Part shown: one piece after another, positions 1 to 37,592 of the stretch
Numbering within the stretch: position 1 is the stretch's first letter
Layout: the number at the start of each line of letters is the position of its first letter
Assembly (NCBI GenBank): GCA_945876745.1
Contig: CAMCPL010000008.1
Location: forward strand, 8,757 to 72,756
DNA length: 64,000 nt
From: an uncultured Clostridia bacterium
GTDB taxonomy: Bacteria; Bacillota; Clostridia; Oscillospirales; Acutalibacteraceae
Reading direction: 5' to 3'
Program-made: the position numbers and the translations under genes
The notes under the pieces: model-generated
Told to the model about the DNA's origin: nothing
Database searches by the model: none
What the model saw: only the letters and a program-made list of their open reading frames with translations

Positions 1-28
1 AACTTGCCATTTACAATAGTGGAGGAAA

Positions 29-1471
29 ATGAGGAAGATGACAAAAAGGAATAATATTTACAGTTTTTTGGCGTTTGTCTGTTCAGTAATTGCAGCAGGG
101 CTTTATGCGGACGGTATTTACTACATAATTAATGATGAATATTATGCGTATGCATGGCTGACGCTTATTGGACTATTCCCTATTGCAATATTATTAATTA
201 CATCACTATTTGCAGATGAAACTAAAAATACACGAAAAATTCCTGTTATTATTTCAGCATCGTTGCTTGTTGTAGGTTTAATAGATTGCCTTTCAGGTAA
301 AACAATGTGTTTGCCGATGGCGAAGGTTGGATTTTTCTATGCAGTATTTGGCACTCCGGTACCTGCAAAATATCTGACATATATATTCACATATGTCGTT
401 TTTGCACTTATAGTTTTCTTTATTCCTTTGTGCAAACCGATTTGGACAAAGCTGTTTTGTATTATTGAGGCTGTAATAAATTTATTCTACATATCATACT
501 TTGCGGTTTTAGATTATATTGGGATAAGATCAAGTGATTACTGTATAAGTGTAGCATATATTCTGTTTTATGTCGGATTTTTCTTTATTTCCTGTACGAT
601 GGCAAAGGATTATAACAAAGACTATGAAGAAGAACCTAAAAAGCTTGATTTCACATCCTTTTTCAAAAGCAGTGCATATTTAGAAATAGCACACGATACT
701 GCTGAAAAGAATCATATTGACTATGCTTCTTTCTATGAGTGTATAAAGAAAAGTGATTTTGAGTCAATTAAAGAAAAAGGCTATTACGGTCATGACTTTG
801 CCTTGCAGATGATTGTTGATTTGCATAATATTTTGGAAGTATTAATTAATGATAATTCAAGCTTCGAATTGATACTTCTCAAACAAAAAACAGATGAGCT
901 TTACAATATTCGCAATGATTTATATGCTTTTGACTTAAAGTTCTTTTTCTTTCTTCACTTCCTGTCAAACGCAGATGAAGAAGACCTTAAAACCATTGCT
1001 GTTGACATAAGCTCAAAATCGGAGTTCCCTATAAATATGCTTTCAAATTTTACAGGTAATTCTTTTACTCTTGATGGTGTAAACATAGCGAGTATGGAAG
1101 GCTTTCTTCAATCACTTAAGTATAAAGATACTGATGTGCAAAGGCGTATTTGTGCATTAACCGGCAAAGAGGCTAAAAAAGCGGGAAAGTACCATAACTT
1201 TTGGAGAATCACTCAATCACTTTACTGGAATGGTAAGAAGATAAACCGTTATAGCAGTAAATACACCAATCTTATCACAAGAGCCTATGATGCAATGGCT
1301 GAGAGTAATCCTGAATTTGTTAAAATTCTTTTGTGGACAGGACACAAGGTTTTAGTTCATTCGGTCGGCAAGGAATACAAATGGCAGACAGTGCTGACCG
1401 AAGACGAGTTCACAGAGGAACAGCTTGTTCGTTTAAGGAGTAAATACAGGGAGGCAAAAGACGGTGAGTAA
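29..1471 (+). CDS. Multi-pass membrane protein with C-terminal phage T4 gp30.3-like NADAR domain
   Basis: N-terminal ~190 aa has about 6 hydrophobic helices; C-terminus DISSKSEFPINMLSNF..FTLDG...SMEGFLQSLK..TVLTEDEF matches gp30.3/NADAR motifs (LSNF, EGFLQ..K, TILTE.EF); GGAGG RBS upstream. Confidence 0.75.
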   Translation: MRKMTKRNNIYSFLAFVCSVIAAGLYADGIYYIINDEYYAYAWLTLIGLFPIAILLITSLFADETKNTRKIPVIISASLLVVGLIDCLSGKTMCLPMAKVGFFYAVFGTPVPAKYLTYIFTYVVFALIVFFIPLCKPIWTKLFCIIEAVINLFYISYFAVLDYIGIRSSDYCISVAYILFYVGFFFISCTMAKDYNKDYEEEPKKLDFTSFFKSSAYLEIAHDTAEKNHIDYASFYECIKKSDFESIKEKGYYGHDFALQMIVDLHNILEVLINDNSSFELILLKQKTDELYNIRNDLYAFDLKFFFFLHFLSNADEEDLKTIAVDISSKSEFPINMLSNFTGNSFTLDGVNIASMEGFLQSLKYKDTDVQRRICALTGKEAKKAGKYHNFWRITQSLYWNGKKINRYSSKYTNLITRAYDAMAESNPEFVKILLWTGHKVLVHSVGKEYKWQTVLTEDEFTEEQLVRLRSKYREAKDGE

Positions 1472-1877
1472 TACCAAGGAAGACTCAATTATCAAACGAT
1501 TCACACAATTGGCTGAGTCTGCCTCTTCTTTGGAGGACTTAGAGAAGATTGATGAATTCCTGAAAATTTGCGAGAATAAAGGTCAACTTAGAGCAGTTGC
1601 TTATAATCACCTTTTGCAGAAATTAGCGGACGAAAATTCAACGGATTCAGAGCTTGCCTTTGCGTATTTTATTACAGGACAGACATACGAAAAACCTGAA
1701 TGGAGATGTATGTATTTTTACAATGCTTGCGACTATTTCAGAGACGCAGCAACCTCATTGGGAATTGAAAACAGTGATTTATATTCATACGATAGAATGA
1801 GAGAATATGCCGCTTATAAAATAGATATTTACAGTGTTTTTCAAGAAGATGCAAATATAGAAGGAGGTAGCTTATGA
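1464..1877 (+). CDS. Hypothetical acidic helical protein
   Basis: 137-aa ORF whose GTG start overlaps the upstream stop by 8 nt; no family recognised. Confidence 0.65.
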   Translation: MSNTKEDSIIKRFTQLAESASSLEDLEKIDEFLKICENKGQLRAVAYNHLLQKLADENSTDSELAFAYFITGQTYEKPEWRCMYFYNACDYFRDAATSLGIENSDLYSYDRMREYAAYKIDIYSVFQEDANIEGGSL

Positions 1878-2503
1878 ATAACAAGAAACAGATATATATG
1901 TTGATGAAGGAAGCATCGTATGAGTATAAAACAGGGGCAGATATACATACGGTGCTTGAAATACTTGAAAAAGCATTAGAGCTATCGCTGAACGATATAA
2001 AGTCGGAAAACTCGACTTTCGAGGACAGGCTGATGTTTTATAAAATAAACATTGACAAGGCTGCTTATTTGATGAGTGAAAATACAGACATAGCATTATC
2101 GTTATTCAAGGATCTTAAAGAAATCGTTGAAGTAGAAAAAGAAAAGCACGCCGACAATTTTACACTTTTGGCACAAAGTGGCTTGCTGAATTATCTGTAC
2201 GGTATGTGCTTTGACGAGGAAAATGAAAAAGAGTTAGTGCGTGCTTGTATTGCTTTTATTGACAGTATGGTGGACTTTATAAAGTGCACCAAAATAAAGC
2301 CATTTATTTCTAACCTTAACGATGTACTTGATTCTCAACGAGGCGTTGTTATAGCATGTCGTCAGCTTGGAATAGACAACGATATTATATCAAGTCTATG
2401 CGTTGGTGAGGATCCTGTGTTTGATTATGATGGTAAAATTGAAAACTTAACCAAATTTAAAGTCTTGTTACAAGAGAATTATCATATCAAAGATAAAGAC
2501 TAA
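1874..2503 (+). CDS. Hypothetical helical (TPR-like) protein
   Basis: 209-aa ORF with ATGA overlap and GGAGG RBS; amphipathic helical repeats; no family recognised. Confidence 0.65.
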   Translation: MNNKKQIYMLMKEASYEYKTGADIHTVLEILEKALELSLNDIKSENSTFEDRLMFYKINIDKAAYLMSENTDIALSLFKDLKEIVEVEKEKHADNFTLLAQSGLLNYLYGMCFDEENEKELVRACIAFIDSMVDFIKCTKIKPFISNLNDVLDSQRGVVIACRQLGIDNDIISSLCVGEDPVFDYDGKIENLTKFKVLLQENYHIKDKD

Positions 2504-2638
2504 CCTTCTATAATATCAATAATATTATGCCTCTTTATTTGTGAATTTTTTGAAAGTTTTTGTAAAAGCAAACAAAGACTTGAATAAGTAAGCAAACTAT
2601 GTTTAAATGCAAACACACAAGGAAAGGAGGCATTCTCT

Positions 2639-3829
2639 ATGCCAAAGAAAAATCAAAAATCAAGGACTCTTACCGGATATGGTGAGGGCACTATATTTTA
2701 CAGTAATTCAAAAGGTAAATGGATGGGACAGATAAATGTCGGTAAGGGTGAAGACGGCAAAATCAAACGAAAGTCCGTAACAGGAGATACGCCCGAAGAG
2801 GTCAAACAAAAGCTCAAGCAAATTGAGTTTGATATATACACAGGTACATTTATCAGCGAAGCCACTATTACCTTTGAGCAGTTAGAAAAACAAATACTCG
2901 AAGACAGATTTGCATTAAACGAGTTTCAACAGCAAACATATTACAGACACTTAGAAACTCTTAAAATGCTGAAATCAATCAGTAAAATACCATTACAGCA
3001 AATTAATTACTCAATGATTAAGCAGCTGATGATTGAGAGCGTGGATAAATACTCGGATTCGACAATCAGAAAGCAATTCTTAATGTTAAATCAGTGCTTC
3101 AACGAGGCTGTTAAAAGAAAGATTATCAAGGAAAATCCAATGAAGGATATGAAAAGACCTAAATCAAGAAAGAAGACTCGTAAGATAAGAGGATTTACCA
3201 TTGACGAGGAGCTTAGGTTCATTGAAGCATTGGAAAAAGAAAGCCCACTTTATAAAAATCAAATGCTTATATCTCTTTTCACAGGAATGCGTATGGGAGA
3301 GGTTAACGCATTAAAATATGATGATGTAAACACAATATTCAATGTTATCACTATTGACGAAACAATTTCAAACGGCAGACAGGGATTTGCGTTCATCAAT
3401 AACACAGCAAAAACCGATGCAGGTAACAGAACTATACCGATAAATAAAATAGTAAAGCCTATCATTGATAAGGTGCTGGCTGATTACAAGGAAACGCCCG
3501 ACAGGCTGTTGTTCCACTCATCTAACGGCACTATTGTAACCACAGGCTTAGTCCATAGTCATTTTAAGCAGATTCTTAAAAAGTATAACATTGTTGATCC
3601 TATGGTTAAGGGCGATATTACACTTCACAGTCTTCGTCACACATACGCAACTCGTTCTATTGAATCCGGTATGCAGGCGAAGGTTCTTCAAAAGCTACTT
3701 GGTCATACTGATATTTCGGTAACGCTTGATACATACTCGGATGTATTTGACAGCTTCCAAAGCGAAAACATCGAAAGAGCTGACGATTATATGATGGAAA
3801 AAGGATTTGGTAAAATCTTATCAGCGTAA
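2639..3829 (+). CDS. Tyrosine recombinase / site-specific integrase (phage/Tn916-like)
   Basis: Arm-binding N-terminus (GEGTIFY..KGKWMGQI); catalytic TGMRMGE, HSLRHTYAT and LGH....TLDTY motifs; AAGGAGG RBS. Confidence 0.95.
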   Translation: MPKKNQKSRTLTGYGEGTIFYSNSKGKWMGQINVGKGEDGKIKRKSVTGDTPEEVKQKLKQIEFDIYTGTFISEATITFEQLEKQILEDRFALNEFQQQTYYRHLETLKMLKSISKIPLQQINYSMIKQLMIESVDKYSDSTIRKQFLMLNQCFNEAVKRKIIKENPMKDMKRPKSRKKTRKIRGFTIDEELRFIEALEKESPLYKNQMLISLFTGMRMGEVNALKYDDVNTIFNVITIDETISNGRQGFAFINNTAKTDAGNRTIPINKIVKPIIDKVLADYKETPDRLLFHSSNGTIVTTGLVHSHFKQILKKYNIVDPMVKGDITLHSLRHTYATRSIESGMQAKVLQKLLGHTDISVTLDTYSDVFDSFQSENIERADDYMMEKGFGKILSA

Positions 3830-3855
3830 CAAAATTAAGTTTATATTCAGTCGCA

Positions 3856-3886
3856 AAAGGCTATCTCATTTTCGGAGGTAGCCTTT
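3856..3886 (+). terminator. Intrinsic terminator after integrase
   Basis: AAAGGCTATCTC / GAGGTAGCCTTT stem. Confidence 0.7.
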
Positions 3887-3971
3887 AATATTGTTTGAGT
3901 GCTATTAGATGCTCCCACCGGGTGCATTTGATTACACGGTATTATATTCAAAATTATATGTTGTTTCCATA

Positions 3972-4000
3972 TTGACTTTTTATTAAAAAAATGATAAAAT
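3972..4000 (+). promoter_or_regulatory. sigmaA-type promoter with no downstream ORF
   Basis: TTGACT-17bp-TAAAAT with extended TG. Confidence 0.55.
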
Positions 4001-4247
4001 CATTTCACTGTGATATCAACGTAGTTGTTGATAGCTATTATCGGTGAGTATAAGTGGCTAAAATGTGCGAAATTTAGAAATCTCGATTGAAGCAACGAAC
4101 AAGCAACTGCATACGCAGAAAAATGCTTGAAAGTGCTTAAACACGGGGATATTTCAAATTTTAAGTTTAGTCACCTCGACCATTAGAGTGCCTCGACACG
4201 CAATTCGCGTAGTTGAGGTTCTTATTTTTTAAGTTTTTTTCTCGCGT

Positions 4248-4275
4248 TTCAAGTCCATTATGAACATCCGCACCA
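4248..4275 (+). pseudogene. Displaced, degenerate tRNA-Leu 3' fragment (candidate attR core)
   Basis: TTCAAGTCC (T-loop) + ATTATGAA + CATCCGCACCA, the acceptor end typical of GCGGATG-type Firmicute tRNA-Leu; 5 nt longer than a normal T-stem. Confidence 0.6.
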
Positions 4276-4279
4276 ACTT

Positions 4280-4306
4280 GAGCAGGTTTCGTACCTGCTC
4301 TTTTTT
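4280..4306 (+). terminator. Terminator directly after tRNA remnant
   Basis: GAGCAGG-7nt-CCTGCTC followed by T6. Confidence 0.8.
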
Positions 4307-4471
4307 GTTGCCAAAATCCGTGAAATGCCCTATTCATCGGGCTTTCGGGACTTTGCATTGTATGCTTGCCGATACTTGAGAACTGTTGGATAACGTTAAA
4401 TTTAGGGTAAACTTGCAATCAAGTTGCAACTTTGAAACCCTCATAAATCAATATTTTTTAGCTAATAAAAC

Positions 4472-4611: not shown

Positions 4612-4908
4612 TTATCCGCCGGCGGCAGGAGAAAGAAGCCAGATTTGGTCACCGTCGGAAATGGCGGTTTTCTTCTTTTTGCAATGCTCGCCGTTTATGT
4701 AAACTATGGCGTCCTTGAATTTTAAGGACTTGTTGGGATTGAGTGCGCCGTTTCTGCCCTCGTGAGAGGTCTGCGCGTCAAGCTCGTAGTTTTTTTCAAC
4801 GATTTTTGAAAGCTCAACAAAAATGTCCTCGACCGTTTTTGCTTCAAGCTCAACCTCGCTGAGTCCTATTGTTGTGTGCAAAACGCCGAAAAGCTGAACC
4901 TTAATCAT
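4612..4908 (-). CDS. moaD: MoaD/ThiS-family sulfur carrier
   Basis: MIKVQLFG start overlapping the aor stop; C-terminal SPAAGG di-glycine; start revised from ORF track (4941). Confidence 0.85.
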   Translation of the reverse strand: MIKVQLFGVLHTTIGLSEVELEAKTVEDIFVELSKIVEKNYELDAQTSHEGRNGALNPNKSLKFKDAIVYINGEHCKKKKTAISDGDQIWLLSPAAGG

Positions 4909-6829
4909 ACAGAAAAACCTCCTTTGCACATTCGGGAACACGAACGCCGACTCTCTTGAGAGTTTTGCGCGTCGGTGCGCCGTCTTTCCAGCCTCTTAAT
5001 TTGTAGTAGGTTTTCTTCATAACTTCAAGAGGCACCTTTGTTTTACTGTCGCCCTTGACCTGTTCCTCGTCGGTTAATCTACCCGGCAAGGTGTCGGCGT
5101 CCTTCGATACAGGCTGACCCAAAATAACGTTTGCAAGACGTTCGGTATTGTAGCCTCGTTCGCCCGCTCTTAAGAATTTTCCGAAATTATACTTAAGACC
5201 TGTTGCGGCGGAAATAACTCTCGGATATTGCATAATAGGAACATTGATAGGCAAAAGCATAGGCAGTCTGTCAAAGATAAATGTAACAGGAAGAGAATAC
5301 TTCATAACCGTATTTACAATTTTTGCAATCAAAGAAGACGGTCTTTTTACAACAAAGCCGGGCAAAATCGCATACGAGGTAAACACGCAGAAGCCTGCCG
5401 CCGAAGCGCCCTCCATTACGTTTTGGAACATAACGGTTAAGCCTGCCTTACCTTTTGTTGTGTAGGAATCAACATTAAGTCCAAGTCCTTCAAGCACTAC
5501 CATATATCCTGCGTTTAAGTGACAGCCGCCTCGGTTTGCCGTTGCATATCCGAGTCCGTGACCGACTGCACCGCGAGGTTCGTAAGCGGCAAGTTCCATA
5601 CCCTTTGCGTTAATGGCAAATTCCTTTCCGCCGTATTTTTCGCTCATTATTCTTGTACCGTTTGCCAAATCGTCGCCTATGCCTCGTCTGTATGCAATGT
5701 CCTCCCAAATTTCGCTGAGATTATCTGTTTCGCCGAAATTCAGTCCGTTATCCCACATACCTTTTTCGTTTAGTTCCATAGCAAAAGCCACGGAGCCTGC
5801 GGCTGAAATGGTGTCAATGCCTAATTCATCAAGTTCGTAATTCCATTTGATAATTTTTTCTAAATCGTCGTTGAGTAAATTGGGTCCGAGCAAGCCGAGT
5901 GTTTCAAGTTCGGGACCTTTAATGTTTTTGCCCTCAAACATAACACGGCGCTCGCATTTCATCGGACAGGAATTGCATCCGGCATTAGCAACCAGGTACT
6001 TATCCGCCATTTTTTCTCCCGAAACCTTTGCGAAATTGTCGAATCGTCCGTCGCTGAAATTCTTTGTTGCGAGTATGCGGTGAGCCTGCATCGGAGCAAC
6101 CAAGCCTGCCGTGCCGAGCTTCGACAGTTGAGCGCCTGTGATAGGATGATTTTTTAAGGTTTTAGTCCATTGAGCGTTGATTTTATCTAACTTTTCCTTG
6201 TTATATACTTCGACTTCTTTTTTGCCGTATGTAGTCACCGCTTTAAGATTTTTGTCGCCGAATACTGCACCGACGCCGCCTCTGCCTGCCGTTCTTTCAC
6301 CGCTGAACACGCAGGAATAAAGCACCTTGTTTTCGCCGGCAGGACCTATTACTAATTTGCCTGATCCTGTGGGAAGATGCTTTTGAGCCTCGGTTGTCAA
6401 CATTCCTGCCATTTCGGGAACTTCGTGAAATTTAACATCATCCTCGGTGATTTCCACCCAGGTCAAAACATCTGCTTTTCCGCTGATGATAACGCCGTCA
6501 AAGCCGGTTCTCTTAAGCCAGTAACCGAATCTGCCGCCGCAGTTTGATGAAGTGATGATATTAGTCAACGGTGAAATTGTAGAAATGTTAAATCTTGATG
6601 ATGAAGGCGAGTTGCAACCGGTAAGCGGACCTGTTGTAACAACAAGCCAGTTATCCTCGTCAAAAGCCTTCATATTAGGAGTAATGTGATTGAGCAGAAT
6701 ATCGCCTGCCATAATCTTTCCGCCGATTGTTCTGTCCCTGTCCTCGTCAGTCCACGGAAAATCCTTGAACGTCTTTGAGGTAAGGTCGATAAAGAGCACT
6801 CTGCCCATATATCCCTTTAGCTTTGTCAT
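4901..6829 (-). CDS. aor: Tungsten-containing aldehyde:ferredoxin oxidoreductase (AOR/WOR family)
   Basis: GYMGRVLFIDL start; SNCGG.FG; GRGGVGAVFG.KNLKA; CxxCxxxC (CNSCPMKC) plus distal Cys; GPELET; RGGCHL. Confidence 0.92.
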   Translation of the reverse strand: MTKLKGYMGRVLFIDLTSKTFKDFPWTDEDRDRTIGGKIMAGDILLNHITPNMKAFDEDNWLVVTTGPLTGCNSPSSSRFNISTISPLTNIITSSNCGGRFGYWLKRTGFDGVIISGKADVLTWVEITEDDVKFHEVPEMAGMLTTEAQKHLPTGSGKLVIGPAGENKVLYSCVFSGERTAGRGGVGAVFGDKNLKAVTTYGKKEVEVYNKEKLDKINAQWTKTLKNHPITGAQLSKLGTAGLVAPMQAHRILATKNFSDGRFDNFAKVSGEKMADKYLVANAGCNSCPMKCERRVMFEGKNIKGPELETLGLLGPNLLNDDLEKIIKWNYELDELGIDTISAAGSVAFAMELNEKGMWDNGLNFGETDNLSEIWEDIAYRRGIGDDLANGTRIMSEKYGGKEFAINAKGMELAAYEPRGAVGHGLGYATANRGGCHLNAGYMVVLEGLGLNVDSYTTKGKAGLTVMFQNVMEGASAAGFCVFTSYAILPGFVVKRPSSLIAKIVNTVMKYSLPVTFIFDRLPMLLPINVPIMQYPRVISAATGLKYNFGKFLRAGERGYNTERLANVILGQPVSKDADTLPGRLTDEEQVKGDSKTKVPLEVMKKTYYKLRGWKDGAPTRKTLKRVGVRVPECAKEVFLYD

Positions 6830-6840
6830 ACGTTTTCTCC

Positions 6841-7518
6841 TTATTTATTACATAGCGGACAATCACTGCCGCTTTTTATTTTCAGCCTTGATATATTCAA
6901 ATTGTCAACAACAATGAGCTCATAGCCGTTCGTGTATTCGTTGTCCAAAAGACGGTTTATTGCAAGCTGCGCCTGAATTGAGCCGATAATTCCTGCCGTT
7001 GCGCTTGAATTATATGTTTTGCAGTCACCTTCATTTAACATTCCGGCACAGGCAAGACACGGCGTTTTTTTCGGCACGTAAAGATATGCAATTCCGAAAA
7101 ATCCGTTAATAGCGCCGTTTATCAACGCAATGCTGTTAACGCTGCAAAAATCCTGTGCAACTCTTCTTGTCTCAATATTGTCGACGGCAAGAACAACAAC
7201 GTCCGCCTGCCTTGCAAAATCAAGGTCGTCGGCAGTAACGATTTTCCTGTTTACGTATTCAACGCTTGTTTCGGCGGAATAATTTGAAAGAAAAGCTCCT
7301 GAGCGAGCACATTTCGACTTGCCGAGCATTGAACGGTCATAGAAAAACTGACGGTTGAGATTTTTTTCTTCAACAACGTCGAAGTCGCACACGGTGAGCT
7401 TTCCTATTCCTGCGCCTGCAAGATGAACGCCTACGTTTACTCCCAAGCCGCCGCAGCCTATGATAACAGCCGATTTGTCGGAAATGTCGTAGCCTTGAAT
7501 ATCCGCCTTATTTACCAT
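6841..7518 (-). CDS. moeB: MoeB/ThiF-family sulfur-carrier adenylyltransferase
   Basis: GCGGLG nucleotide loop; D.D.VE..NLNRQ; CxxC zinc pairs (CLAC, CPLC). Confidence 0.88.
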   Translation of the reverse strand: MVNKADIQGYDISDKSAVIIGCGGLGVNVGVHLAGAGIGKLTVCDFDVVEEKNLNRQFFYDRSMLGKSKCARSGAFLSNYSAETSVEYVNRKIVTADDLDFARQADVVVLAVDNIETRRVAQDFCSVNSIALINGAINGFFGIAYLYVPKKTPCLACAGMLNEGDCKTYNSSATAGIIGSIQAQLAINRLLDNEYTNGYELIVVDNLNISRLKIKSGSDCPLCNK

Positions 7519-8002
7519 AGCTTCCTCCGCAGGTTACGGTATTTCCCGAAAGCGTTTCGACTGCGTGAGCCAAAACGGGCTTAACTATTTCAAGCGATTC
7601 GCGCACCGCCTTCGGACTGCCGGGCAAATTGATTATCAGCGTTGATTTTCTTATTCCGCTGACCGCCCTCGAAAGCATTGCTCTGTCGGTGATTTTCAAG
7701 CTGTATTCCCTGATTGCCTGCGGTATTCCGGGAACCTCCCTTTCAATAACGCTCTTTGTTGCTTCGGGCGTAACGTCTCTCGGCGCAAGCCCCGTGCCGC
7801 CGGTTGTAAGCACAACGTCAACCTTAAGCTCGTCGCAAAAACGAATGAGAGTATTTGCAATTTCTTTTTCGTCGTCGGGAACAATAACGTATTCAACTGT
7901 CTGCGCCGTATCTGACATAATTTCCTTTATCAGTACGCCGCTTTTGTCCTCGCATTCGCCTTTACTGCAACGGTCGGACGCACTCAAAATTGCTATTTTC
8001 AT
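7508..8002 (-). CDS. mog: Molybdopterin adenylyltransferase (Mog/MoaB family)
   Basis: SDR..GE.EDKSG; TTGGTGLAPRDVTPEAT; NLPGSPKAV. Confidence 0.9.
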   Translation of the reverse strand: MKIAILSASDRCSKGECEDKSGVLIKEIMSDTAQTVEYVIVPDDEKEIANTLIRFCDELKVDVVLTTGGTGLAPRDVTPEATKSVIEREVPGIPQAIREYSLKITDRAMLSRAVSGIRKSTLIINLPGSPKAVRESLEIVKPVLAHAVETLSGNTVTCGGSYGK

Positions 8003-8139
8003 AACACAGCTCCTTGTATTTGTAATTTCATATTAACATATTATGTCTTTATTTACAACGATTTGTTAAAACATATTGAAAAATTTTCTGTTTTGTGTTA
8101 CCTTTTAATTGACATATTAATACCCGATGTCCCAATTTT

Positions 8140-8268
8140 TTATCCGACCTTGCCTCTCTAAGTGGGCGAAAAGACCATATGAGGCGCAAGGCGAGCTATA
8201 ATAAACGCCGAAACGGCAGTAGCTAAGGGTTGACGAAGAAATGAGGCAGCCTTCCGTATTTGAAAAGG
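8140..8268 (+). ncRNA. Moco/Wco (molybdenum/tungsten cofactor) riboswitch-like leader
   Basis: TCCGA...CTAAG..., GCCGAAACGGC hairpin, CTAAGGGT...GAAATG...GCCTTCCGTATTTGAAAAGGAG ending at the tupA RBS; resembles the Rfam MOCO_RNA_motif; context fits. Confidence 0.65.
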
Positions 8269-8278
8269 AGAAAAAGAA

Positions 8279-9121
8279 ATGAAAAAGGTATTATCGGTTC
8301 TATTGTCGGCAGTAATGTTGCTTTCGCTTGTCGCTTGCTCGGCAGGAGCACAAAAAACGCCGACCCCTGAAAATCCGACTATCAGATTATCAACAACAAC
8401 CTCGGTAAACGACTCAGGCTTATTGCCGTATCTTCTGCCGTATTTTGAAGAAGAAACAGGTTATAAGGTAGAGGTACAGTCAGCAGGTACCGGAGCAGCG
8501 CTTCAAAAGGCGAAAGATGGAAATGCAGATTTAGTGCTTGTTCACGCAAAGGCTTCCGAGGAAGAATTTATCGGCGAGGGCTACGGCGTTGAAAGACTGC
8601 CGTTTATGTATAACTTCTTCGTTATTGTAGGACCTGCCGACGACCCTGCGCAAATCAAGTCGAGCGCAAATGCAAACGAGGCTTTTTCAAAAATCGCACA
8701 GTCGCAGAGCAATTTTGTATCCCGCGGTGACGACAGCGGAACTCACAAGGCAGAGCTTAAGATTTGGGGCAAGGACAATGCGCCTAACGCCGAAACGGAT
8801 AAATGGTATATCAGCGCAGGTCAGGGAATGGGCGCCTGCCTTACAATGGCGTCCGAAAAGAACGCATATTGCCTTACCGACAAGGCTACGTTCCTTTCTA
8901 TGAAGAACGATTTGAAGAGTGAAATTCTTGTCAGCGAGAGCGACGATTTGAAGAATACATATTCGTTAATCGCCGTTAATCCCGAAAAAATCGACGGCTT
9001 GAATGTTGACGGAGCAAACGCTTTAATCAGCTGGATGACAGGCGACGAGGCTAAAAAGCTTATCGCACAGTACGGCGAGCAGGAATACGGCGAAGCGTTG
9101 TTCTACCTTATTGAGGACTGA
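8279..9121 (+). CDS. tupA: Tungstate ABC transporter substrate-binding lipoprotein
   Basis: Lipobox LVAC; TTTS..DSGLL tungstate-binding motif; GTG.AL; SRGD.SGTH. Confidence 0.9.
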   Translation: MKKVLSVLLSAVMLLSLVACSAGAQKTPTPENPTIRLSTTTSVNDSGLLPYLLPYFEEETGYKVEVQSAGTGAALQKAKDGNADLVLVHAKASEEEFIGEGYGVERLPFMYNFFVIVGPADDPAQIKSSANANEAFSKIAQSQSNFVSRGDDSGTHKAELKIWGKDNAPNAETDKWYISAGQGMGACLTMASEKNAYCLTDKATFLSMKNDLKSEILVSESDDLKNTYSLIAVNPEKIDGLNVDGANALISWMTGDEAKKLIAQYGEQEYGEALFYLIED

Positions 9122-9123
9122 TT

Positions 9124-9807
9124 TTGAACAGCTTTCAACAGGCGTTCGAGCTGCTTGCTTCCTTTGATAAGGAGCTTTATCAGATTATCGCAACAACGCT
9201 GAAAATGTCGTTTTTCAGCACATTGATTTCGTGTCTTTTGGGTATTCCCTTGGGCGCCTTGCTTGAAAGCAGGGCGTTTCGGGGTAAGGCATTAATAAAA
9301 AGAATAATTCACACATTGATAGGCTTGCCGCCGGTGGTGGCAGGTCTGCTTGTGTATATGATGTTTACTCATTACGGACCCTTCGGAAAGCTCGGAATAC
9401 TGTTCACCGTTAAGGTTATGGTAGTGGCGCAGGTGGTTTTGATAACACCGCTTGTTATTTCGCTTACCTCGTCGATAGTGTCGGGCAATTCAAAACAGAT
9501 AAAAGAAACGGCAATGGGACTTAATCTTTCAAAGGCGAAAATTCTGTCGCTTTATGTCAGCGAAAACAAGAACGCAATTGTCAGCGTGGTTTTGACGGCG
9601 TTCGGCAGAGCTATTGCAGAGGTCGGCGCAGTAAGTCTCGTAGGCGGTAATATTCAGTTCAAAACGAGAGTTATGACGACTGCGATTTTGCTCGAAACAA
9701 ATAAGGGCAATTTCTCCTTTGCCTTGGCGCTGGGAATAATATTGCTGATTATCGCTTTTGTTGTAAACTCGGTTGCCTCCTTGGCGGAAAGGAGAAGCGA
9801 TGATTAA
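9124..9807 (+). CDS. tupB: Tungstate ABC transporter permease
   Basis: GLPPVVAGL; FGRAIAEVGA...GGNI...TRVMTTAI. Confidence 0.9.
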   Translation: MNSFQQAFELLASFDKELYQIIATTLKMSFFSTLISCLLGIPLGALLESRAFRGKALIKRIIHTLIGLPPVVAGLLVYMMFTHYGPFGKLGILFTVKVMVVAQVVLITPLVISLTSSIVSGNSKQIKETAMGLNLSKAKILSLYVSENKNAIVSVVLTAFGRAIAEVGAVSLVGGNIQFKTRVMTTAILLETNKGNFSFALALGIILLIIAFVVNSVASLAERRSDD

Positions 9808-10462
9808 TATCGTAAGCCTGAAAAAACGCTACGGCGAAAAATTAGTGCTTGATATAGACGAGCTGACAATAGCGCACGGCGAGAGAGTTGCGCTTGTCGG
9901 TGCAAACGGAAGCGGAAAATCCACCCTGCTAAAACTCATTGCAGGAGTAATTACGCCGAGCGAGGGCGAAATTACTTCGGATTTTCAAAGCCTTTATATG
10001 CCGCAAAGCAGTTATACCTTTGATAAAAGCGTGCTCAAAAATATTATGATTTCGGGCAACGTATCGACGAAAGAAGCGCACGAGCTTCTTTGCCGCTTTG
10101 AGCTCGGCGAGCTTGAAAATAAAAATGCAAAAAATCTTTCGGGCGGCGAGAAGCAAAGAGTTGCGCTTTGCAGACTGCTTGCAGGACATTCAAGGCTCAT
10201 ACTGCTTGATGAGCCGACGAGCGAAATGGATTTACATTCGACAGGTATTGCCGAAAACGCAATACTTGATTACATAAATAAAGAAAAAGCCACCCTCGTT
10301 TTTTCTACTCATTCACCCGTTCAGGCAAAGAGGCTTGCCGACAGAATTATCATTCTCAATAACGGCAGGGTGGCAGAGGACGGCAGTATTAACGAAACGG
10401 TAAACGCTCCAAAAACAAGTTGGGGTGAAGAATTTTTGTCACAATGGATAATAAGACGGTAG
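9800..10462 (+). CDS. tupC: Tungstate ABC transporter ATP-binding protein
   Basis: GANGSGKST Walker A, LSGGE signature, LLDEP Walker B; start revised to ATG 9800 after AAGGAG. Confidence 0.88.
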   Translation: MINIVSLKKRYGEKLVLDIDELTIAHGERVALVGANGSGKSTLLKLIAGVITPSEGEITSDFQSLYMPQSSYTFDKSVLKNIMISGNVSTKEAHELLCRFELGELENKNAKNLSGGEKQRVALCRLLAGHSRLILLDEPTSEMDLHSTGIAENAILDYINKEKATLVFSTHSPVQAKRLADRIIILNNGRVAEDGSINETVNAPKTSWGEEFLSQWIIRR

Positions 10463-10468
10463 GAAATT

Positions 10469-11671
10469 ATGCTTGAGGTTGTATCTTTACAAACGGCAAA
10501 GGAAATAATTAAGCAATACATTTTGCCGAATGACGAAATTGAATATGTATCACTTGAAAATGCCGTCGGCAGAATTTTGGCACAGGACGTTGTCGCAGAT
10601 GAGGACGTTCCGAATTTCAACCGTTCAACCGTTGACGGCTATGCTGTTATTGCCGCAGATACCTACGGTGCAAGCGAGTCGATTCCCGCAATGCTAAATG
10701 TTGTCGGTGAGGTCGAAATGGGCAAAATTGCACAGCTTGATATATCGAACAATCAGTGCGTAAAAATTTCAACAGGCGGTATGCTTCCCGAAGGTGCAAA
10801 CGCCGTTGTTATGCTTGAGCATACGGAAGAGGCGCTTGACGGGCTGTGCCTTTGTCAAAGGGCGGTAAGTCCGTTTGAAAACGTTGTCAGAAAGGGCGAC
10901 GATGTTCGGCGCGGCGATTTCCTTATTAAGTCGTCGAGCGTGCTGACTGCGTCGCAAATCGGAATACTTTGCGCACTCGGAATCGACAGAGTTGCGGTCA
11001 AAAAACGAGTTAAGATAGGTATTATTTCAACAGGTGACGAGCTTGTTGATATTGATAAACCGCTTACCGCAGGTAGGGTTAGGGATATCAATTCTTATCT
11101 GCTCAACGCCTGCTGTGAAAGGCTCGGCTGTGAGAGTGTGATGTACGGAATAATTAAGGACGATTACGCCGAGATTTCGGGCAGTATAAAAAAGGCGTGC
11201 GACGAGTGTGATATTGTGCTGATTTCGGGCGGCTCGTCAGCAGGAGCAAGGGATATGACGGTAAACGCCGTTGACGAGCTTGGAAAAACGTATTTTCACG
11301 GCGTTGCAATGAAGCCCGGAAAGCCGTCGATTTTCGGCGTGGTTGAAAATAAGGCAGTGTTCGGCTTACCAGGTCATCCGCTTGCGGCGTTTTTTGTATT
11401 TGAACAGCTTGTGAAATACGCCGTGTCGGTTATGAACAATGCGCAGTATACGAGCGTTGTGCTTGAAAGAAAAATGATTAGCAATGTTTCGTCAAACAAC
11501 GGCAGAGAGGATTTTGTCTGCGTGAAAATTATTGACAACGAATACGCCTGCTGCGTACCTGCAAAATCGGGAATAATTTCCGTTTTGAACAGCGCCGACG
11601 GCTATATAACAATTCCGAGAAACGCCGAGGGAATCAAGGAGCACGAAAAGGTTAGGATAACATTATTATGA
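10469..11671 (+). CDS. moeA: Molybdopterin metal-insertase MoeA (paralog 1)
   Basis: FNRSTVDGYAV; TGG.LP.GA.AVVM.E; STGDEL; SGGSS.G..D; GLPGHP. Confidence 0.92.
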   Translation: MLEVVSLQTAKEIIKQYILPNDEIEYVSLENAVGRILAQDVVADEDVPNFNRSTVDGYAVIAADTYGASESIPAMLNVVGEVEMGKIAQLDISNNQCVKISTGGMLPEGANAVVMLEHTEEALDGLCLCQRAVSPFENVVRKGDDVRRGDFLIKSSSVLTASQIGILCALGIDRVAVKKRVKIGIISTGDELVDIDKPLTAGRVRDINSYLLNACCERLGCESVMYGIIKDDYAEISGSIKKACDECDIVLISGGSSAGARDMTVNAVDELGKTYFHGVAMKPGKPSIFGVVENKAVFGLPGHPLAAFFVFEQLVKYAVSVMNNAQYTSVVLERKMISNVSSNNGREDFVCVKIIDNEYACCVPAKSGIISVLNSADGYITIPRNAEGIKEHEKVRITLL

Positions 11672-13545
11672 AGCACAGCTATTTGAATAACAAAAGCGTT
11701 GACGAGGCGCAAAGGGAATATTTCGAGCTTACGGACAAAATCGGATTTACCTGCAAGGCTGAAGAAGTGCTTGTAAATCAGGCGTTCGGTCGTGTGACGG
11801 CGTATGCCGTTTATGCAAAAATCAGCTCGCCTCATTACAACGCAAGCGCAATGGACGGAATTTGCGTTACAGCAAGCTCAACATACGGCGCAAGTGAGGA
11901 AAATCCTGTTGTTTTAACAAAGAATATGTATGAAACCGTCGACACGGGCGACGCAATACCCGACGGTTACGACGCCGTTATTATGGTCGAGGACCTTATT
12001 GAAAACGGTAGCGACAGCTTTGTTATTCATTCTGCCGTTCATCCGTGGCAAAACATACGTCAGGTAGGCGAGGATATTTGTCAGGGTGATATGCTTGTCC
12101 CTGCGTTTACAACTCTTACTCCTGCAATGTGCGCTTCGCTCCTTGCCGGCGGCGTTACACGCGTAGGCGTTGTGAAAAAGCCGCTTGTCGGAATTATCCC
12201 GACAGGTGACGAAATTGTAGAGCCGTGCGAAAATCCGAAGTCGGGTGAAATAATAGAATTTAACTCAACGGTTTTTTCCGGTATGCTTTTGGAAAAAGGC
12301 GCCTCGGTAAAGGTTTACGATATCGTAAGGGACGAAAAGCCGCTTCTTAAGACGGCGCTGAAAAAGGCAGCTTCGGAATGTGATTTGGTTCTCATATCGG
12401 CAGGCTCGTCTGCCGGAAGAGACGACTACACAAGCGAAATAATTGAAGAGGCAGGCACGGTTTTAACCCACGGAATAGCAATAAAGCCAGGCAAGCCTGC
12501 AATACTCGGAGCGTGCGGCAACACGCCTGTTATCGGATTGCCCGGCTATCCTGTTTCCGCAATTGTCGTTATGTCGCAATTTGTTTTGCCGCTTGTTGAT
12601 ATGTATTTCAAAAGGGCGGTTGATACAGGCGAATACGTACAGGCAACGCTTGGAAAAAGGATTGTTTCATCACTTAAATATGCTGAGTACGTAAGAGTAA
12701 CGCTCGGCAAAATCGGCGACAGACTTATTGCAACTCCGCTGAACAAGGGAGCAGGAATAATAACGAGCTTTACAAAGGCGGACGCAATACTGTTCATCAA
12801 TCAAAACTGCGAGGGTATAGAACAGGGAACACAGGTCAGGGTCAGACTTCTCAAAAGCATAAATGAAATTGAAAGCTCTCTCGTTGTAACGGGAAGCCAC
12901 GACCCTCTTATAGACGAAATTGCAAATATACTGAAAATGAATGCAACGCCTGTTTTGATAAAATCGAACCACGTCGGCAGTATGGGCGCAATAACTGCGC
13001 TCAAAAGCGGACTTTCGCACCTCGGTGCAATCCATCTGCTTGATACTCAAACAGGCGAGTACAATACATCTTATTTAGAAAAATATTTTGACGGCGAGGT
13101 AACTCTCGTCAAGGGCGTAAAGCGTGTTCAGGGGATTATGGTAAAAAAAGGAAATCCGCTGAATATACGGGGAATTGAGGATTTGAAGCAGGCGAGAATC
13201 GTAAACCGACAGCGCGGATCGGGAACGAGAATACTGCTTGATTATTTGCTTAAAAAGCACTCAATTTTGCCCGGCGAAATATCGGGCTATTCAAACGAGG
13301 AATTTACTCATACTGCCGTTGCGGCTTTGATTAAAGCGGACAATGCGGACGCAGGGCTCGGTATTTATTCCGCGGCGGCAATGTACGGCTTGGATTTCAT
13401 TCCCGTGTGCTGTGAGGAATACGATTTTGTTGTTGACAACAGATTTATTAATGACGAAAAGGTTAAGGCGTTTTTTGACGTGCTTAAATCCGACGAATTT
13501 AATAAGAGAATTAACGAGCTTGGCGGATACGAGGTTAGAGAATAA
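11668..13545 (+). CDS. moeA: MoeA paralog 2 fused to a C-terminal periplasmic-binding-like domain
   Basis: ASAMDG; PTGDE; GLPGYP; C-terminal GSHD..GSMGAI..HL....NRQRGSGTR..EYD domain. Confidence 0.88.
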   Translation: MKHSYLNNKSVDEAQREYFELTDKIGFTCKAEEVLVNQAFGRVTAYAVYAKISSPHYNASAMDGICVTASSTYGASEENPVVLTKNMYETVDTGDAIPDGYDAVIMVEDLIENGSDSFVIHSAVHPWQNIRQVGEDICQGDMLVPAFTTLTPAMCASLLAGGVTRVGVVKKPLVGIIPTGDEIVEPCENPKSGEIIEFNSTVFSGMLLEKGASVKVYDIVRDEKPLLKTALKKAASECDLVLISAGSSAGRDDYTSEIIEEAGTVLTHGIAIKPGKPAILGACGNTPVIGLPGYPVSAIVVMSQFVLPLVDMYFKRAVDTGEYVQATLGKRIVSSLKYAEYVRVTLGKIGDRLIATPLNKGAGIITSFTKADAILFINQNCEGIEQGTQVRVRLLKSINEIESSLVVTGSHDPLIDEIANILKMNATPVLIKSNHVGSMGAITALKSGLSHLGAIHLLDTQTGEYNTSYLEKYFDGEVTLVKGVKRVQGIMVKKGNPLNIRGIEDLKQARIVNRQRGSGTRILLDYLLKKHSILPGEISGYSNEEFTHTAVAALIKADNADAGLGIYSAAAMYGLDFIPVCCEEYDFVVDNRFINDEKVKAFFDVLKSDEFNKRINELGGYEVRE

Positions 13546-14015
13546 TGGAGCTTACACATATAAATTCAAAGGGTGAGGCGGTTATGGTAAACGTTGGCGA
13601 AAAGGAAATCACCCAACGAACGGCGCAGGCGTGCGGTATTATCGAAATGAAGCAGGAAACCCTGCAAAAGCTGCTGGACGCCGACCTGAAAAAGGGCGAC
13701 GGTCTTGCCGCTGCGAGAATTGCGGGAATTATGGGAGCAAAGAATACGAGCACTCTTATTCCGCTTTGCCATAATATTCCGATTGAAAGCGTTGAAATAG
13801 AATTCGAACCGATAAGCAAAACTCGGCTTAAGATTACGTCTTTTGCAAAATGCAGCTATAAAACCGGCATTGAAATGGAGGCGCTGACCGCCGTTTCGGT
13901 TGCCTGTCTTACGGTTTACGATATGTGCAAGGCAATCGACAGAGAAATGGTAATAAAGGATATTCGCCTGCTGAAAAAGACAGGCGGAAAGAGCGATTAT
14001 AATTATGAAGGATAA
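13545..14015 (+). CDS. moaC: Cyclic pyranopterin monophosphate synthase
   Basis: LTH...G.A.MV.V..K; LIPLCH; TGIEMEALT; YDMCKA.D; KTGGKS. Confidence 0.95.
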   Translation: MELTHINSKGEAVMVNVGEKEITQRTAQACGIIEMKQETLQKLLDADLKKGDGLAAARIAGIMGAKNTSTLIPLCHNIPIESVEIEFEPISKTRLKITSFAKCSYKTGIEMEALTAVSVACLTVYDMCKAIDREMVIKDIRLLKKTGGKSDYNYEG

Positions 14016-14943
14016 CTATTTGCGAGAGATAAATTATCTGCGAGTATCGCTCACTCAAAGGTGCACTTTGAACTGTGTTTACTGCGGAAACGACGGTTGT
14101 GAAAATGACGAGCTTACAGGCGAGCAGATAATAAAAATCGTTGCCGCTTTTTCAAAATGCGGTATCACAAAGGTTAGGCTGACAGGCGGCGAGCCGCTTG
14201 TGAGAGAGGATATTTGCGACATTATTGCAGGTATTCGACGACTTGACGGCATCAAAAAAATTGTGCTTACAACTAACGGAGTTTTGCTGAAAAAATACGC
14301 CGGCGATTTGAAGAGCGCGGGACTTGACGCGGTTAATATCAGCCTTGATACTCTTGACGGCGAGCTGTATTCAAAAATGACGGGCGGCGGTAATATTAAT
14401 GATGTGCTTGACGGCATAGAAACGGCGCAGGACGTCGGCTTAAAGCCGATTAGAATAAACGCCGTACCGATAAAGGGAGTTAATGACGACTGCATTTCTT
14501 CGTTAGTCGAGCTTGCAAGAGACAATGAAATAGACGTCAGATTTATCGAGCTTATGCCGTTTTCGTCAGTCGGCGAAAACAAAAGCCGAATTGTCACAGG
14601 CGACGAAATTCTCTCTCGGCTTGATTTTTTGAAGCCCTGCGAGCAAAAATCAAAAAGCTCTCCGGCGCGCTACTATTATGCCGACGGCTTTAAGGGAAAA
14701 ATCGGATTTATCACCCCTGTGAGTAAAAAGTTCTGCGACAGCTGCAACAGAATAAGATTGCTTTCAAACGGAAGCATTAAGCCCTGTCTTGCATTTGACG
14801 ATACCGTCGATTTGAGAGATTGTATTGATGATGAGCAGCGGCTTGTTGAAAAAATAAAGACCGCCGTTTTGTCAAAGCCGAAGGGTCATAATTTTGAATG
14901 TGGCTACGGCGGATTTCACGGTATGAACAAAATAGGAGGATAA
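14005..14943 (+). CDS. moaA: GTP 3',8-cyclase (radical SAM)
   Basis: YLRVSLT.RC...C.YC; RLTGGEPL; RFIELMP; FC..CNRIRL...G.IKPCL; C-terminal IGG. Confidence 0.93.
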   Translation: MKDNYLREINYLRVSLTQRCTLNCVYCGNDGCENDELTGEQIIKIVAAFSKCGITKVRLTGGEPLVREDICDIIAGIRRLDGIKKIVLTTNGVLLKKYAGDLKSAGLDAVNISLDTLDGELYSKMTGGGNINDVLDGIETAQDVGLKPIRINAVPIKGVNDDCISSLVELARDNEIDVRFIELMPFSSVGENKSRIVTGDEILSRLDFLKPCEQKSKSSPARYYYADGFKGKIGFITPVSKKFCDSCNRIRLLSNGSIKPCLAFDDTVDLRDCIDDEQRLVEKIKTAVLSKPKGHNFECGYGGFHGMNKIGG

Positions 14944-14948
14944 CAAAA

Positions 14949-15383
14949 ATGGACGGCACCGTTTTATCAATTAATATCAGCACGGCAAAGGGAACGCCCA
15001 AAACATCAGTAAATCCCGGAGTTCTTATTGAGGATTTCGGCTTTGAGGGCGACGCTCACGCAGGAAAATGGCATAGACAGGTCAGTCTGCTTGCTATCGA
15101 AAGCATAGAAAAATCAAAGGGTATGCCGACAAACGGGCTTTGCCACGGCGTTTTTGCAGAGAATATAACAACAAAGGGCATAGTGCTTTATACTCTGCCT
15201 GTCGGAACACGCCTGCAAATAGGCGAAGCCGTTATTGAAATAACACAAATCGGCAAGGAATGTCACGAGGGCTGTGCAATCCAAAAAACCGTCGGCAAGT
15301 GCATTATGCCTAAAGAGGGCGTTTTCGCAAAAGTAATAAAAGGCGGCAACGTATATAATAACGACCCAATTCAAATCCTGTAA
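14949..15383 (+). CDS. MOSC-domain protein
   Basis: GDAHAG.WHRQVSLL; FAENIT; TQIGKECH..C.I...G.CIMP.EGVF; start revised to ATG 14949 after AGGAGG. Confidence 0.88.
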   Translation: MDGTVLSINISTAKGTPKTSVNPGVLIEDFGFEGDAHAGKWHRQVSLLAIESIEKSKGMPTNGLCHGVFAENITTKGIVLYTLPVGTRLQIGEAVIEITQIGKECHEGCAIQKTVGKCIMPKEGVFAKVIKGGNVYNNDPIQIL

Positions 15384-15490: not shown

Positions 15491-15513
15491 GTAAGGACGA
15501 GCAATGCTCGTCC
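15491..15513 (+). repeat. REP-like palindrome
   Basis: GTAA-GGACGAGCA-A-TGCTCGTCC, similar to GTAG-family REPs. Confidence 0.55.
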
Positions 15514-15520
15514 GCATTTT

Positions 15521-15680
15521 TCTTTTATCCCCTCAGTCGGCAAAGCCGCCAGCTCCCCTTAATGACATTAAAAGGGGAGCCTTTGTTGGTTGAAAAAACG
15601 CTCTGTCTTGAACATTGGCTCCCCTTGTTTTGAAAATCAAGGGGAGCTGGCTCGCCACGGCGAGACTGAGGGGATAAAAG
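15521..15680. repeat. 160-bp composite inverted-repeat element (REPIN/MITE-like)
   Basis: Ends TCTTTTATCCC..TCAGTC / GACTGA.GGGATAAAAGA; each arm has an internal hairpin and a GCCAGCTCCCC..GGGGAGCC hairpin. Confidence 0.75.
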
Positions 15681-15700
15681 AATTATAATCGCCCAAACCA

Positions 15701-37515: not shown

Positions 37516-37592
37516 TTCCTCCTTAGCTCAGTCGGTAGAGCACTCGGCTGTTAACCGAGTTGTCGTTGGTTCAAGTCCAACAGGGGGAGCCA
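37516..37592 (+). tRNA. tRNA-Asn (GTT)
   Basis: Full cloverleaf: TCCTCCT/AGGGGGA acceptor, GCTC/GAGC D stem, CTCGG-CTGTTAA-CCGAG anticodon arm, GTTGG-TTCAAGT-CCAAC T arm, encoded CCA. Confidence 0.97.

Follow-up and report, generated by a model that had tools for sequence, protein, structure and literature searches.

A MoaE-less tungsten-cofactor island of gut Clostridia and its small MOSC protein as a candidate substitute for MoaE

Molybdopterin synthesis is usually described as a universal pathway that depends on MoaD together with MoaE. A hole at the position of MoaE has been on record since 2009 or earlier: acetogens, Geobacter, Dehalobacter and most of the cofactor-making anaerobic Bacillota that we sampled have no recognisable MoaE, yet they plainly make molybdenum and tungsten enzymes. 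Geobacter metallireducens, an organism with active molybdenum or tungsten enzymes, is reported to have moaD, moeB and mosC without moaE (Aklujkar et al., 2009; PMC2700814); acetogens with active enzymes of this kind are reported to be without moaE in a passage of Shin et al. (2016; PMC5039349) that cites Pierce et al.; and for Dehalobacter, MOSC proteins have been suggested as possible stand-ins for the synthase (Tang et al., 2016; PMC4751268). Both the gap and the proposal that a MOSC protein fills it are therefore already published, and the idea itself, having been put forward for Dehalobacter, is not new. Here we consider it at a tungsten island of twelve genes, located at positions 4612-15383 of a 64,000-nucleotide stretch of DNA from an uncultured Clostridia bacterium (contig CAMCPL010000008.1; hereafter, the whole stretch is called the window). 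What we add are distribution counts, a tally of gene fusions and an argument from the sufficiency of the island, which together give the replacement of MoaE by MOSC substantial comparative support.

Several described systems resemble this island. Iyer, Burroughs and Aravind (2006; PMC1779556) interpreted an AOR-moaD-moeB cluster as a tungsten-cofactor unit that is probably mobile and that, like the island, has moaD directly beside the gene for the aldehyde:ferredoxin oxidoreductase (AOR), moeB adjoining, and a sporadic distribution; it differs in that MoaE is an occasional member, whereas MoaE is absent from the entire genome that holds the island. Peng, Xu and Zhang (2018; PMC6147048), where they treat Dielma fastidiosa and gut Clostridia, describe a cluster of MoaA, MoaC, MoeA, MoeB, MogA, MOSC and AOR, read as horizontally transferred. 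This molybdenum-utilisation island of Dielma shares with ours the clustered pathway genes, one MOSC and one AOR, but the passages on it count MOSC as a molybdoenzyme and do not discuss the missing MoaE. The same gap, with a small MOSC beside moaA or moaC, is found in Dehalobacter (Dehre_2363/2365), G. metallireducens and acetogens including Moorella, and G. metallireducens, like the island, retains moaD and moeB; the island differs from these anaerobes in packing pathway, transporter, riboswitch and a single client enzyme into one 11-kb block, within a genus otherwise devoid of the pathway. With Escherichia coli molybdopterin synthase (MoaD2-MoaE2) and MoeB the island shares a carrier ending in Gly-Gly, the E1 enzyme, and the flanking enzymes that form cyclic pyranopterin monophosphate (cPMP) and insert the metal; unlike E. 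coli it has no MoaE, and the candidate substitute is a MOSC beta-barrel. With its twelve genes and one client enzyme, in a host genus otherwise without the pathway, the island is a compact test case.

The island comprises two divergent operons (open reading frame list, Pfam and NCBIfam; Table 1). The leftward operon runs mog/moaB, moeB/thiF, AOR and moaD, and the rightward one tupA, tupB, tupC, moeA, moeA-PBP (a moeA fused to a PBP_like domain), moaC, moaA and MOSC. All twelve genes listed in the initial annotation of this DNA were recovered by Pfam and NCBIfam where it had placed them, and the block is very probably a tungsten-cofactor/AOR module. It is an ordinary member of the widespread MoaE-less tungsten modules of gut Clostridia, and such a module most likely represents a conserved, self-sufficient tungsten unit of these bacteria.

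The initial annotation had also seen no moaE in the island, an absence that proved true and that extends to the genome. The MoaE model PF02391, with which 12 of 14 control genomes were positive, had no match at E<=1 in the source assembly (1.93 Mb, 18 contigs, 98.6% complete). A clostridial-type MoaE profile, built from six divergent proteins of the class that score 30-40 bits with PF02391, was run with filters off against all six-frame open reading frames of this assembly, with a best E of 0.74. MoaE was likewise not found in 40 relatives, in the five other island-bearing genomes of the genus, in ten further genomes with a syntenic island, or at less than 10 kb from MOSC in any of 80 related loci. 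As the finding that would speak against a non-canonical pathway, the initial annotation had named a canonical moaE at another place in the genome, and neither PF02391 nor the clostridial-type profile revealed one. It is conceivable that a MoaE exists and was missed, either because it falls within the 1-2% of the genome not covered by the assembly or because it is too divergent for profiles, as could be suspected from the fragmentation and completeness of the assembly and from the clostridial type, which is an orphan gene that stands among unrelated genes, away from cofactor operons, and scores so low with PF02391. However, the profile search at maximum sensitivity was negative, and the same absence recurs in all 16 island genomes and again in 99 other genomes without MoaE, including closed ones; repeated assembly loss of one and the same gene is improbable, and we see only a slim prospect for a missed MoaE. 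As an observation in its own right, Clostridia own a distinct short MoaE type of 130-147 residues with a conserved N-terminal 'PS.DEWLKEAK' (loci L002, L003, L005, L006 and L007, at about 1470-1880; L004:1471-2379), which in one genome is fused to MoaB and adjoins moaC.

The distribution of MOSC and MoaE was counted in 301 genomes of the window's class (class sample) and in 99 genomes of its phylum, almost all outside that class (phylum sample). MoaA counts in the class sample include strong hits only, and the MOSC clade was searched with the window protein as query because the Pfam MOSC model is too weak (35 bits here; it missed a distant paralogue in genome G047). Among the 301 genomes, 16 have MoaE, 64 MoaC, 60 MoaA, 58 the MOSC clade and 39 AOR. 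MOSC was never seen without MoaC in either sample, and within the class it tracks MoaC (58/64) more than AOR (35/64), usually adjoins MoaC, and appears fused to it in several genomes. Three MoaC-positive genomes with neither MoaE nor MOSC hold an orphan MoaC and no MoaA. When the 60 class genomes with both MoaA and MoaC are considered, 43 of the 44 without MoaE carry MOSC, as do 12 of the 16 with MoaE, and four of the five without MOSC have MoaE, the exception being genome G233. The phylum sample, with 71 genomes having MoaC and 14 having MoaE, gave MOSC in 57/57 MoaE-less MoaC-positive genomes and MoaE in 10/10 genomes without MOSC; about 80% of its cofactor-capable genomes have MOSC and no recognisable MoaE. 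After pooling, with the source genome counted once, MOSC is present in 99 of 100 MoaE-less genomes and MoaE in 14 of 15 MOSC-less ones (Fisher 9e-10, a naive test, as relatives are not independent), and at least one of the two is present in 129 of 130 cofactor-capable genomes; counted by lineage, MoaE occurs in 10 of 11 MOSC-less lineages. Two families (f99 and f125) contain both states, MoaE or MOSC, and the genomes with MoaE and without MOSC have the same type of operon, with moeA, moeA-PBP, moaA, moaC and mog, minus MOSC. An earlier reading of the class sample, according to which there is no anticorrelation and MOSC is merely a general pathway gene, was revised once the three orphan-MoaC genomes had been dropped and the phylum sample added.

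This pattern fits, without proving it, the view that MOSC and MoaE may be alternative providers of one essential step, and it turns a speculation into a defined complementation question. The anticorrelation between this MOSC clade and moaE that the initial annotation had proposed to look for thus holds in part: the two are complementary over the pooled samples, but within the class MOSC accompanies MoaC regardless of MoaE.

The MOSC protein itself was characterized at the level of sequence, predicted fold and gene fusions. Translation starts at the ATG at 14949, five bases past the moaA stop and after an AGGAGG ribosome-binding site, which gives 144 residues and not 161. The match to PF03473 exceeds the cut-off of 22.7 bits, placing the protein in the domain family, and the NCBIfam MoaC/MOSC fusion family (NF011069, 'MoaC/MOSC') matches the C-terminal half of MOSC with 210 bits. 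The AlphaFold2 (AF2) model (predicted local distance difference test, pLDDT, 80.9) is a MOSC beta-barrel, for which the top Foldseek matches were YiiM, YuaD, mARC1 and pyruvate-kinase barrels, with template-modelling scores (TM-scores) of 0.62-0.70 to YiiM and YuaD; no MoaE chain was among the matches listed. A sequence search of the PDB returned marginal YiiM matches only, and a feature search of the ESM Atlas added nothing. Cys105 aligns with the canonical MOSC cysteine in the 'SPC' motif of YiiM and is kept in at least 90% of 150 representatives, and Cys105, His106, Cys109 and Cys118 are nearly invariant across 150 distant representatives (C-H-x2-C-x8-C). The protein thus shares barrel fold and canonical cysteine with the MOSC superfamily (YiiM, YcbX, mARC and the C-terminal domain of MOCOS/ABA3), and differs from it in its 144 residues, two further family-wide cysteines, the lack of accessory domains, and its position embedded in, or fused to, biosynthesis genes. 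It is also the most conserved protein of the island, with 69-83% identity where MoaA has 45-61% and MoaD 36-45%. A search at E<=1e-10 assigns 1305 cluster representatives to the clade, and among the best 150 the fusion partners were MogA/MoaB (23), MoaC (8), XdhC (5), MobB (3), FdhD (1), ThiF (1) and MobA (1). Since MoaC and MogA act just before and just after molybdopterin synthase, these fusions fit a role of MOSC between them; the ThiF partner belongs to the family of MoeB, which activates the sulfur carrier. A complex prediction for MOSC with the MoaD-like protein scored 0.00, below the mark, in a run made without controls and with alignments of 28 and 44 rows.

We give an about even chance to the hypothesis that this three-cysteine MOSC protein is an analogue of MoaE, that is, a non-homologous substitute for the catalytic subunit of molybdopterin synthase, as the comparative data would suggest. 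Since the genus is otherwise without cofactor genes, one expects the island itself, or else a housekeeping protein, to provide the missing step, and MOSC, as the only gene of the island without an assigned pathway role, is the leading candidate for it. At the same time AOR, despite the absence of MoaE from the genome, retains its cluster-binding and catalytic residues. The suggestion in the initial annotation that MOSC supplies a non-canonical pterin synthase step gains from the genome-wide absence of MoaE and from the complementarity of the two proteins, and loses from the genomes that hold both.

Several observations weigh against a MoaE-like role. First, 16 genomes hold both MoaE and the MOSC clade, which excludes a strict anticorrelation or a simple displacement. 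Second, G233, which is 99% complete, combines a full operon and six AOR genes with the absence of MoaE and a decayed MOSC remnant. Third, Bacilli-like genomes with canonical MoaE never carry this MOSC, so that deep ancestry accounts for part of the association; a single deep group probably comprises the genomes that have canonical MoaE and lack MOSC. Fourth, outside the source genome, MoaE-less status was called with PF02391 alone, a model with which the clostridial type scores 30-40 bits. Fifth, the fold of MOSC is, according to Foldseek, unrelated to that of MoaE. Sixth, XdhC and FdhD, found six times among the fusion partners, are late sulfuration or insertion chaperones and point to a role after metal insertion. 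Finally, to our knowledge every characterised MOSC protein (YiiM, YcbX, mARC, the C-terminal domain of MOCOS) handles finished molybdenum cofactor (Moco), and we know of none that makes molybdopterin. As for the remnant in G233, the locus in question (L102; G233:C11:120000-139000) contains, at 10052-10898, MOSC and a second moaC decayed to fragments full of stop codons, and keeps intact tupABC, moeA, moeA-PBP, moaA and moaC; this genome is the single exception to 'MoaE or MOSC'.

The last of these points lead to the main rival explanation, namely, that MOSC acts late, as a cofactor carrier or sulfuration scaffold comparable to the C-terminal domain of Moco sulfurase, together with XdhC or FdhD and in the service of AOR, formate dehydrogenase (FDH) or xanthine dehydrogenase (XDH), while another protein performs the step of MoaE. 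The fold and canonical cysteine of Moco-binding MOSC proteins, the XdhC (5/150) and FdhD (1/150) fusions, and the presence of MOSC with or without MoaE inside the class would all be expected under such a role; AOR-family and FDH enzymes probably require a terminal sulfido ligand. But a late function does not predict MoaE in 14 of 15 MOSC-less genomes, and it leaves the island, in a genus otherwise without cofactor genes, with no candidate for an obligatory step. Moreover, fusions to MoaC and MogA (31) exceed those to late-step proteins (6), and MOSC follows MoaC more closely than it follows AOR. We consider this late role rather unlikely.

A further reading of the same fold, which we find improbable, makes MOSC a second small enzyme that uses Moco or the tungsten cofactor (Wco), a YiiM-like reductase of N-hydroxylated compounds co-transcribed as a client of the pathway. 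YiiM proteins are indeed the closest solved structures, the '6-hydroxyaminopurine reductase' model NF008577 matches weakly (23.6 bits), and a client would never occur without MoaC, as is the case for MOSC. However, YiiM has an extra C-terminal domain, and in the 144 residues of MOSC only the MOSC domain was detected, the extra domain of YiiM and an electron-transfer partner domain being missing. Near-universality in cofactor-capable genomes is unusual for a client; MOSC is also fused to biosynthetic enzymes, has a distribution complementary to that of MoaE, and is more conserved than AOR. The counting of MOSC among molybdoenzymes in the Dielma passages of Peng et al. (2018; PMC6147048) agrees with the client reading.

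The island most likely works as follows. TupABC would import tungstate, MoaA and MoaC would make cPMP, and the conversion of cPMP to molybdopterin, for which the canonical enzyme is missing here, would have MOSC as its most likely provider. In that case the pterin would sit in the pocket that is occupied by Moco in other MOSC proteins, with Cys105 presumably placed beside the carbons that receive sulfur, and the donor of this sulfur could be either the thiocarboxylate of the island's MoaD, activated through MoeB, or a persulfide formed on the cysteines of MOSC itself. Mog and the two MoeA proteins would then adenylate the pterin and insert the metal, and the resulting W-bis-pyranopterin would mature the single AOR, with the Moco-type riboswitch feeding back on the transport and biosynthesis operon. 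In a broader sense, MOSC may constitute the main dithiolene route of anaerobic Bacillota, optionally fed by MoaD and MoeB and otherwise by a persulfide relay, a generalization for and against which we see about equal grounds. If true, a core cofactor step would have a second, unrelated solution, with consequences for how pathways are annotated, for the metabolic modelling of acetogens from the gut and from industry, and for the production of tungsten and molybdenum enzymes such as AOR and FDH in foreign hosts.

The MoaD-like protein has the ThiS/MoaD ubiquitin-like fold and the C-terminal Gly-Gly of a MoaD, ending in AAGG, with LLSPAxGG invariant across 44 homologues; the MoaE partner that would complete its assignment as a MoaD is missing from the genome. 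Its open reading frame extends to 4941, with M12 as the likely start, its score with TIGR01687 (moaD_arch; 34.7 bits) lies under the cut-off of that model, and it is the sole ThiS/MoaD match in the genome above the family cut-off. The E1 protein matches the MoeB, ThiF and UbaA models of NCBIfam, each under its cut-off. In the case of TupA, the best model is NF041772, with 203 bits under a cut-off of 400, and the translation shows a lipobox (LVAC) and a TTTS motif, which we take to be of significance for a TupA; TupABC is most likely a tungstate importer, a candidate assignment.

AOR matches AFOR_N and AFOR_C with 198.9 and 368.4 bits, far over the cut-offs, and with E values of 6e-110 and 1e-58. 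Its best solved relative is Pyrococcus furiosus AOR (1AOR, E 6e-110), and the alignment to it shows CxxCxxxC, the distal fourth Cys, and the positions equivalent to Glu and His all retained; by comparison with 1AOR these would be the [4Fe-4S] ligands and the catalytic Glu/His, respectively. The enzyme is predicted, most likely, to contain a W-bis-pyranopterin and to oxidize aldehydes. The source genome has no gene of the dimethyl sulfoxide reductase (DMSOR) or XDH families, which leaves AOR as its only recognisable pterin-enzyme client. Like the Class I tungsten oxidoreductases (P. furiosus AOR and the tungsten-containing oxidoreductases, WORs, of gut bacteria), AOR of the island has a single large subunit with all cofactor and cluster motifs, as known here from sequence; it differs in that a polyferredoxin gene found in related islands is missing. 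For gut bacteria, whose WORs have been studied by the Adams laboratory, a role in aldehyde detoxification has been proposed (PMC13328260, PMC9424855).

A pathway that is simply incomplete, in cells that salvage molybdopterin or cofactor from their gut neighbours, would also account for the gap. Four genomes of the class sample (G097, G145, G180 and G256) have an AOR-family gene without MoaC, and G243 has AOR without MoaA, as salvage would allow; but the island keeps genes both upstream (moaA, moaC) and downstream (mog, two moeA) of the gap, which would be pointless if molybdopterin were imported. Free molybdopterin is, moreover, very labile. Salvage is for us the least probable of the readings considered, and a very improbable one. 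Apart from this question, G243 holds five AOR genes with an orphan MoaC and neither MOSC nor MoaE; for genomes of these kinds, cofactor salvage, assembly gaps and non-pterin paralogues are all possible.

Directly upstream of tupA, the initial annotation had overlooked a riboswitch (Table 1), whose 3' end spans the ribosome-binding site and start codon of tupA. Because of this position the whole transport and biosynthesis operon, including MOSC, is most likely under feedback control by the cofactor. The P3 hairpin of the aptamer is present, with a 16-nt insertion in its loop. Variants of the Moco riboswitch without P3 have been linked to tungsten cofactor genes, against which a P3-bearing aptamer on a tungsten operon may be of note.

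Table 1. Features of the tungsten island, with positions in the window.
Feature	Position	Strand	Evidence and remarks
MoaD-like sulfur carrier, 98 aa, ends Gly-Gly	4612..4908	-	PF02597 ThiS 36.6 bits; last gene of AOR operon
AOR/WOR, single-subunit tungsten aldehyde:ferredoxin oxidoreductase, 642 aa	4901..6829	-	AFOR_N + AFOR_C
MoeB/ThiF-type E1 adenylyltransferase, 225 aa	6841..7518	-	PF00899 145 bits; ThiF domain alone detected
Mog/MoaB molybdopterin adenylyltransferase	7508..8002	-	PF00994 113.6 bits; NF006932 157.6 bits (cut-off 158)
Moco/Wco riboswitch aptamer	8133..8286	+	Rfam RF01055 72.5 bits (gathering score 36); full length 1-135
TupA, tungstate-binding lipoprotein of ABC transporter	8279..9121	+	PBP_like_2 155 bits
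TupB permease	9124..9807	+	PF00528 47 bits
TupC ATPase	9773..10462	+	PF00005 104 bits
MoeA, first copy, metal insertion	10469..11671	+	MoeA_N, MoCF_biosynth, MoeA_C
MoeA fused to PBP_like oxyanion-binding domain	11668..13545	+	MoeA domains + PF12727 225 bits; NF011068 726.8 bits (above cut-off 534)
MoaC, cPMP synthase	13545..14015	+	PF01967 187.8 bits
MoaA, radical-SAM GTP 3',8-cyclase	14005..14943	+	Radical_SAM + Mob_synth_C
Small MOSC protein, 144 aa, Cys65/Cys105/Cys109/Cys118	14949..15383	+	PF03473 35 bits; last gene of riboswitch operon
Terminator-like hairpin closing rightward operon	15495..15513	+	8-bp stem with 6 GC pairs, then T-rich tail; consensus pattern match only

The island had further been taken for a transferable aldehyde-detoxification module beside a tRNA integration hotspot. 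The hotspot was not borne out: ARAGORN places the only tRNA of the window at 37517, 22 kb away, and Rfam shows no RNA gene adjoining the island. Transferability is partly supported, by distribution and not by composition. MoaC occurs in 6 of 61 sampled genomes of the genus, and island DNA is confined to these six; the island lies at other loci in three genomes (G368, G004 and G343), and closer relatives of the source genome are without it. At least 80 other species of metagenome-assembled genomes from the gut, labelled Acutalibacteraceae, Oscillospiraceae, Ruminococcaceae or Clostridia, share this gene order, and the nearest syntenic loci among them come from human and ruminant gut. The distribution is thus patchy and the insertion context varies, and comparison of 80 syntenic loci shows no conservation of the flank that follows MOSC downstream. 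Against mobility, the island carries no mobility gene of its own, has no tRNA within 22 kb, and does not deviate in composition, with a GC content of 0.45, the same as in the rest of the window (range 0.43-0.46 for the island and the other 60 kb). A tyrosine integrase is encoded nearby, at 2639-3829, in a 4-kb low-GC block (window 1-4200, GC 0.35) that also encodes a phage GP30.3/NADAR-domain protein (29-1471) and two open reading frames without a family match. Part of this block (2563-4185) is found again, 93% identical, in G001, an island-free genome of the same genus, whereas core genes are about 71-80% identical, which identifies the integrase as part of a separate, recently mobile element that abuts the island.

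Clustering of the open reading frames of the 80 loci revealed no extra conserved gene beside the island other than a polyferredoxin in some, the remainder being the twelve known genes and shadow frames. This polyferredoxin, which has about 128 residues and several motifs of the CxxCxxC type, is encoded immediately after moaD in related islands (L103:11958-12341; L068, L069 and L090) and is probably the electron acceptor of AOR there. No copy follows moaD in the window, so that the left end of the island appears truncated where the low-GC element begins.

Two repeated intergenic elements lie just outside the operons. A non-coding stretch of 180 bp (4272-4451), with a terminator-like hairpin at 4280-4300 and neither an Rfam match nor a tRNA, has a further copy in the source genome (C1:36388-36567, 91%), and copies with 85-89% identity, a level above that of core genes, occur in several genomes of the genus. 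Immediately past the terminator of the rightward operon, an element rich in inverted repeats (15514-15699), which looks like the repetitive extragenic palindromic (REP) type, has further copies in contigs C6 and C1 of the source genome (84-89%) as well as in other members of the genus.

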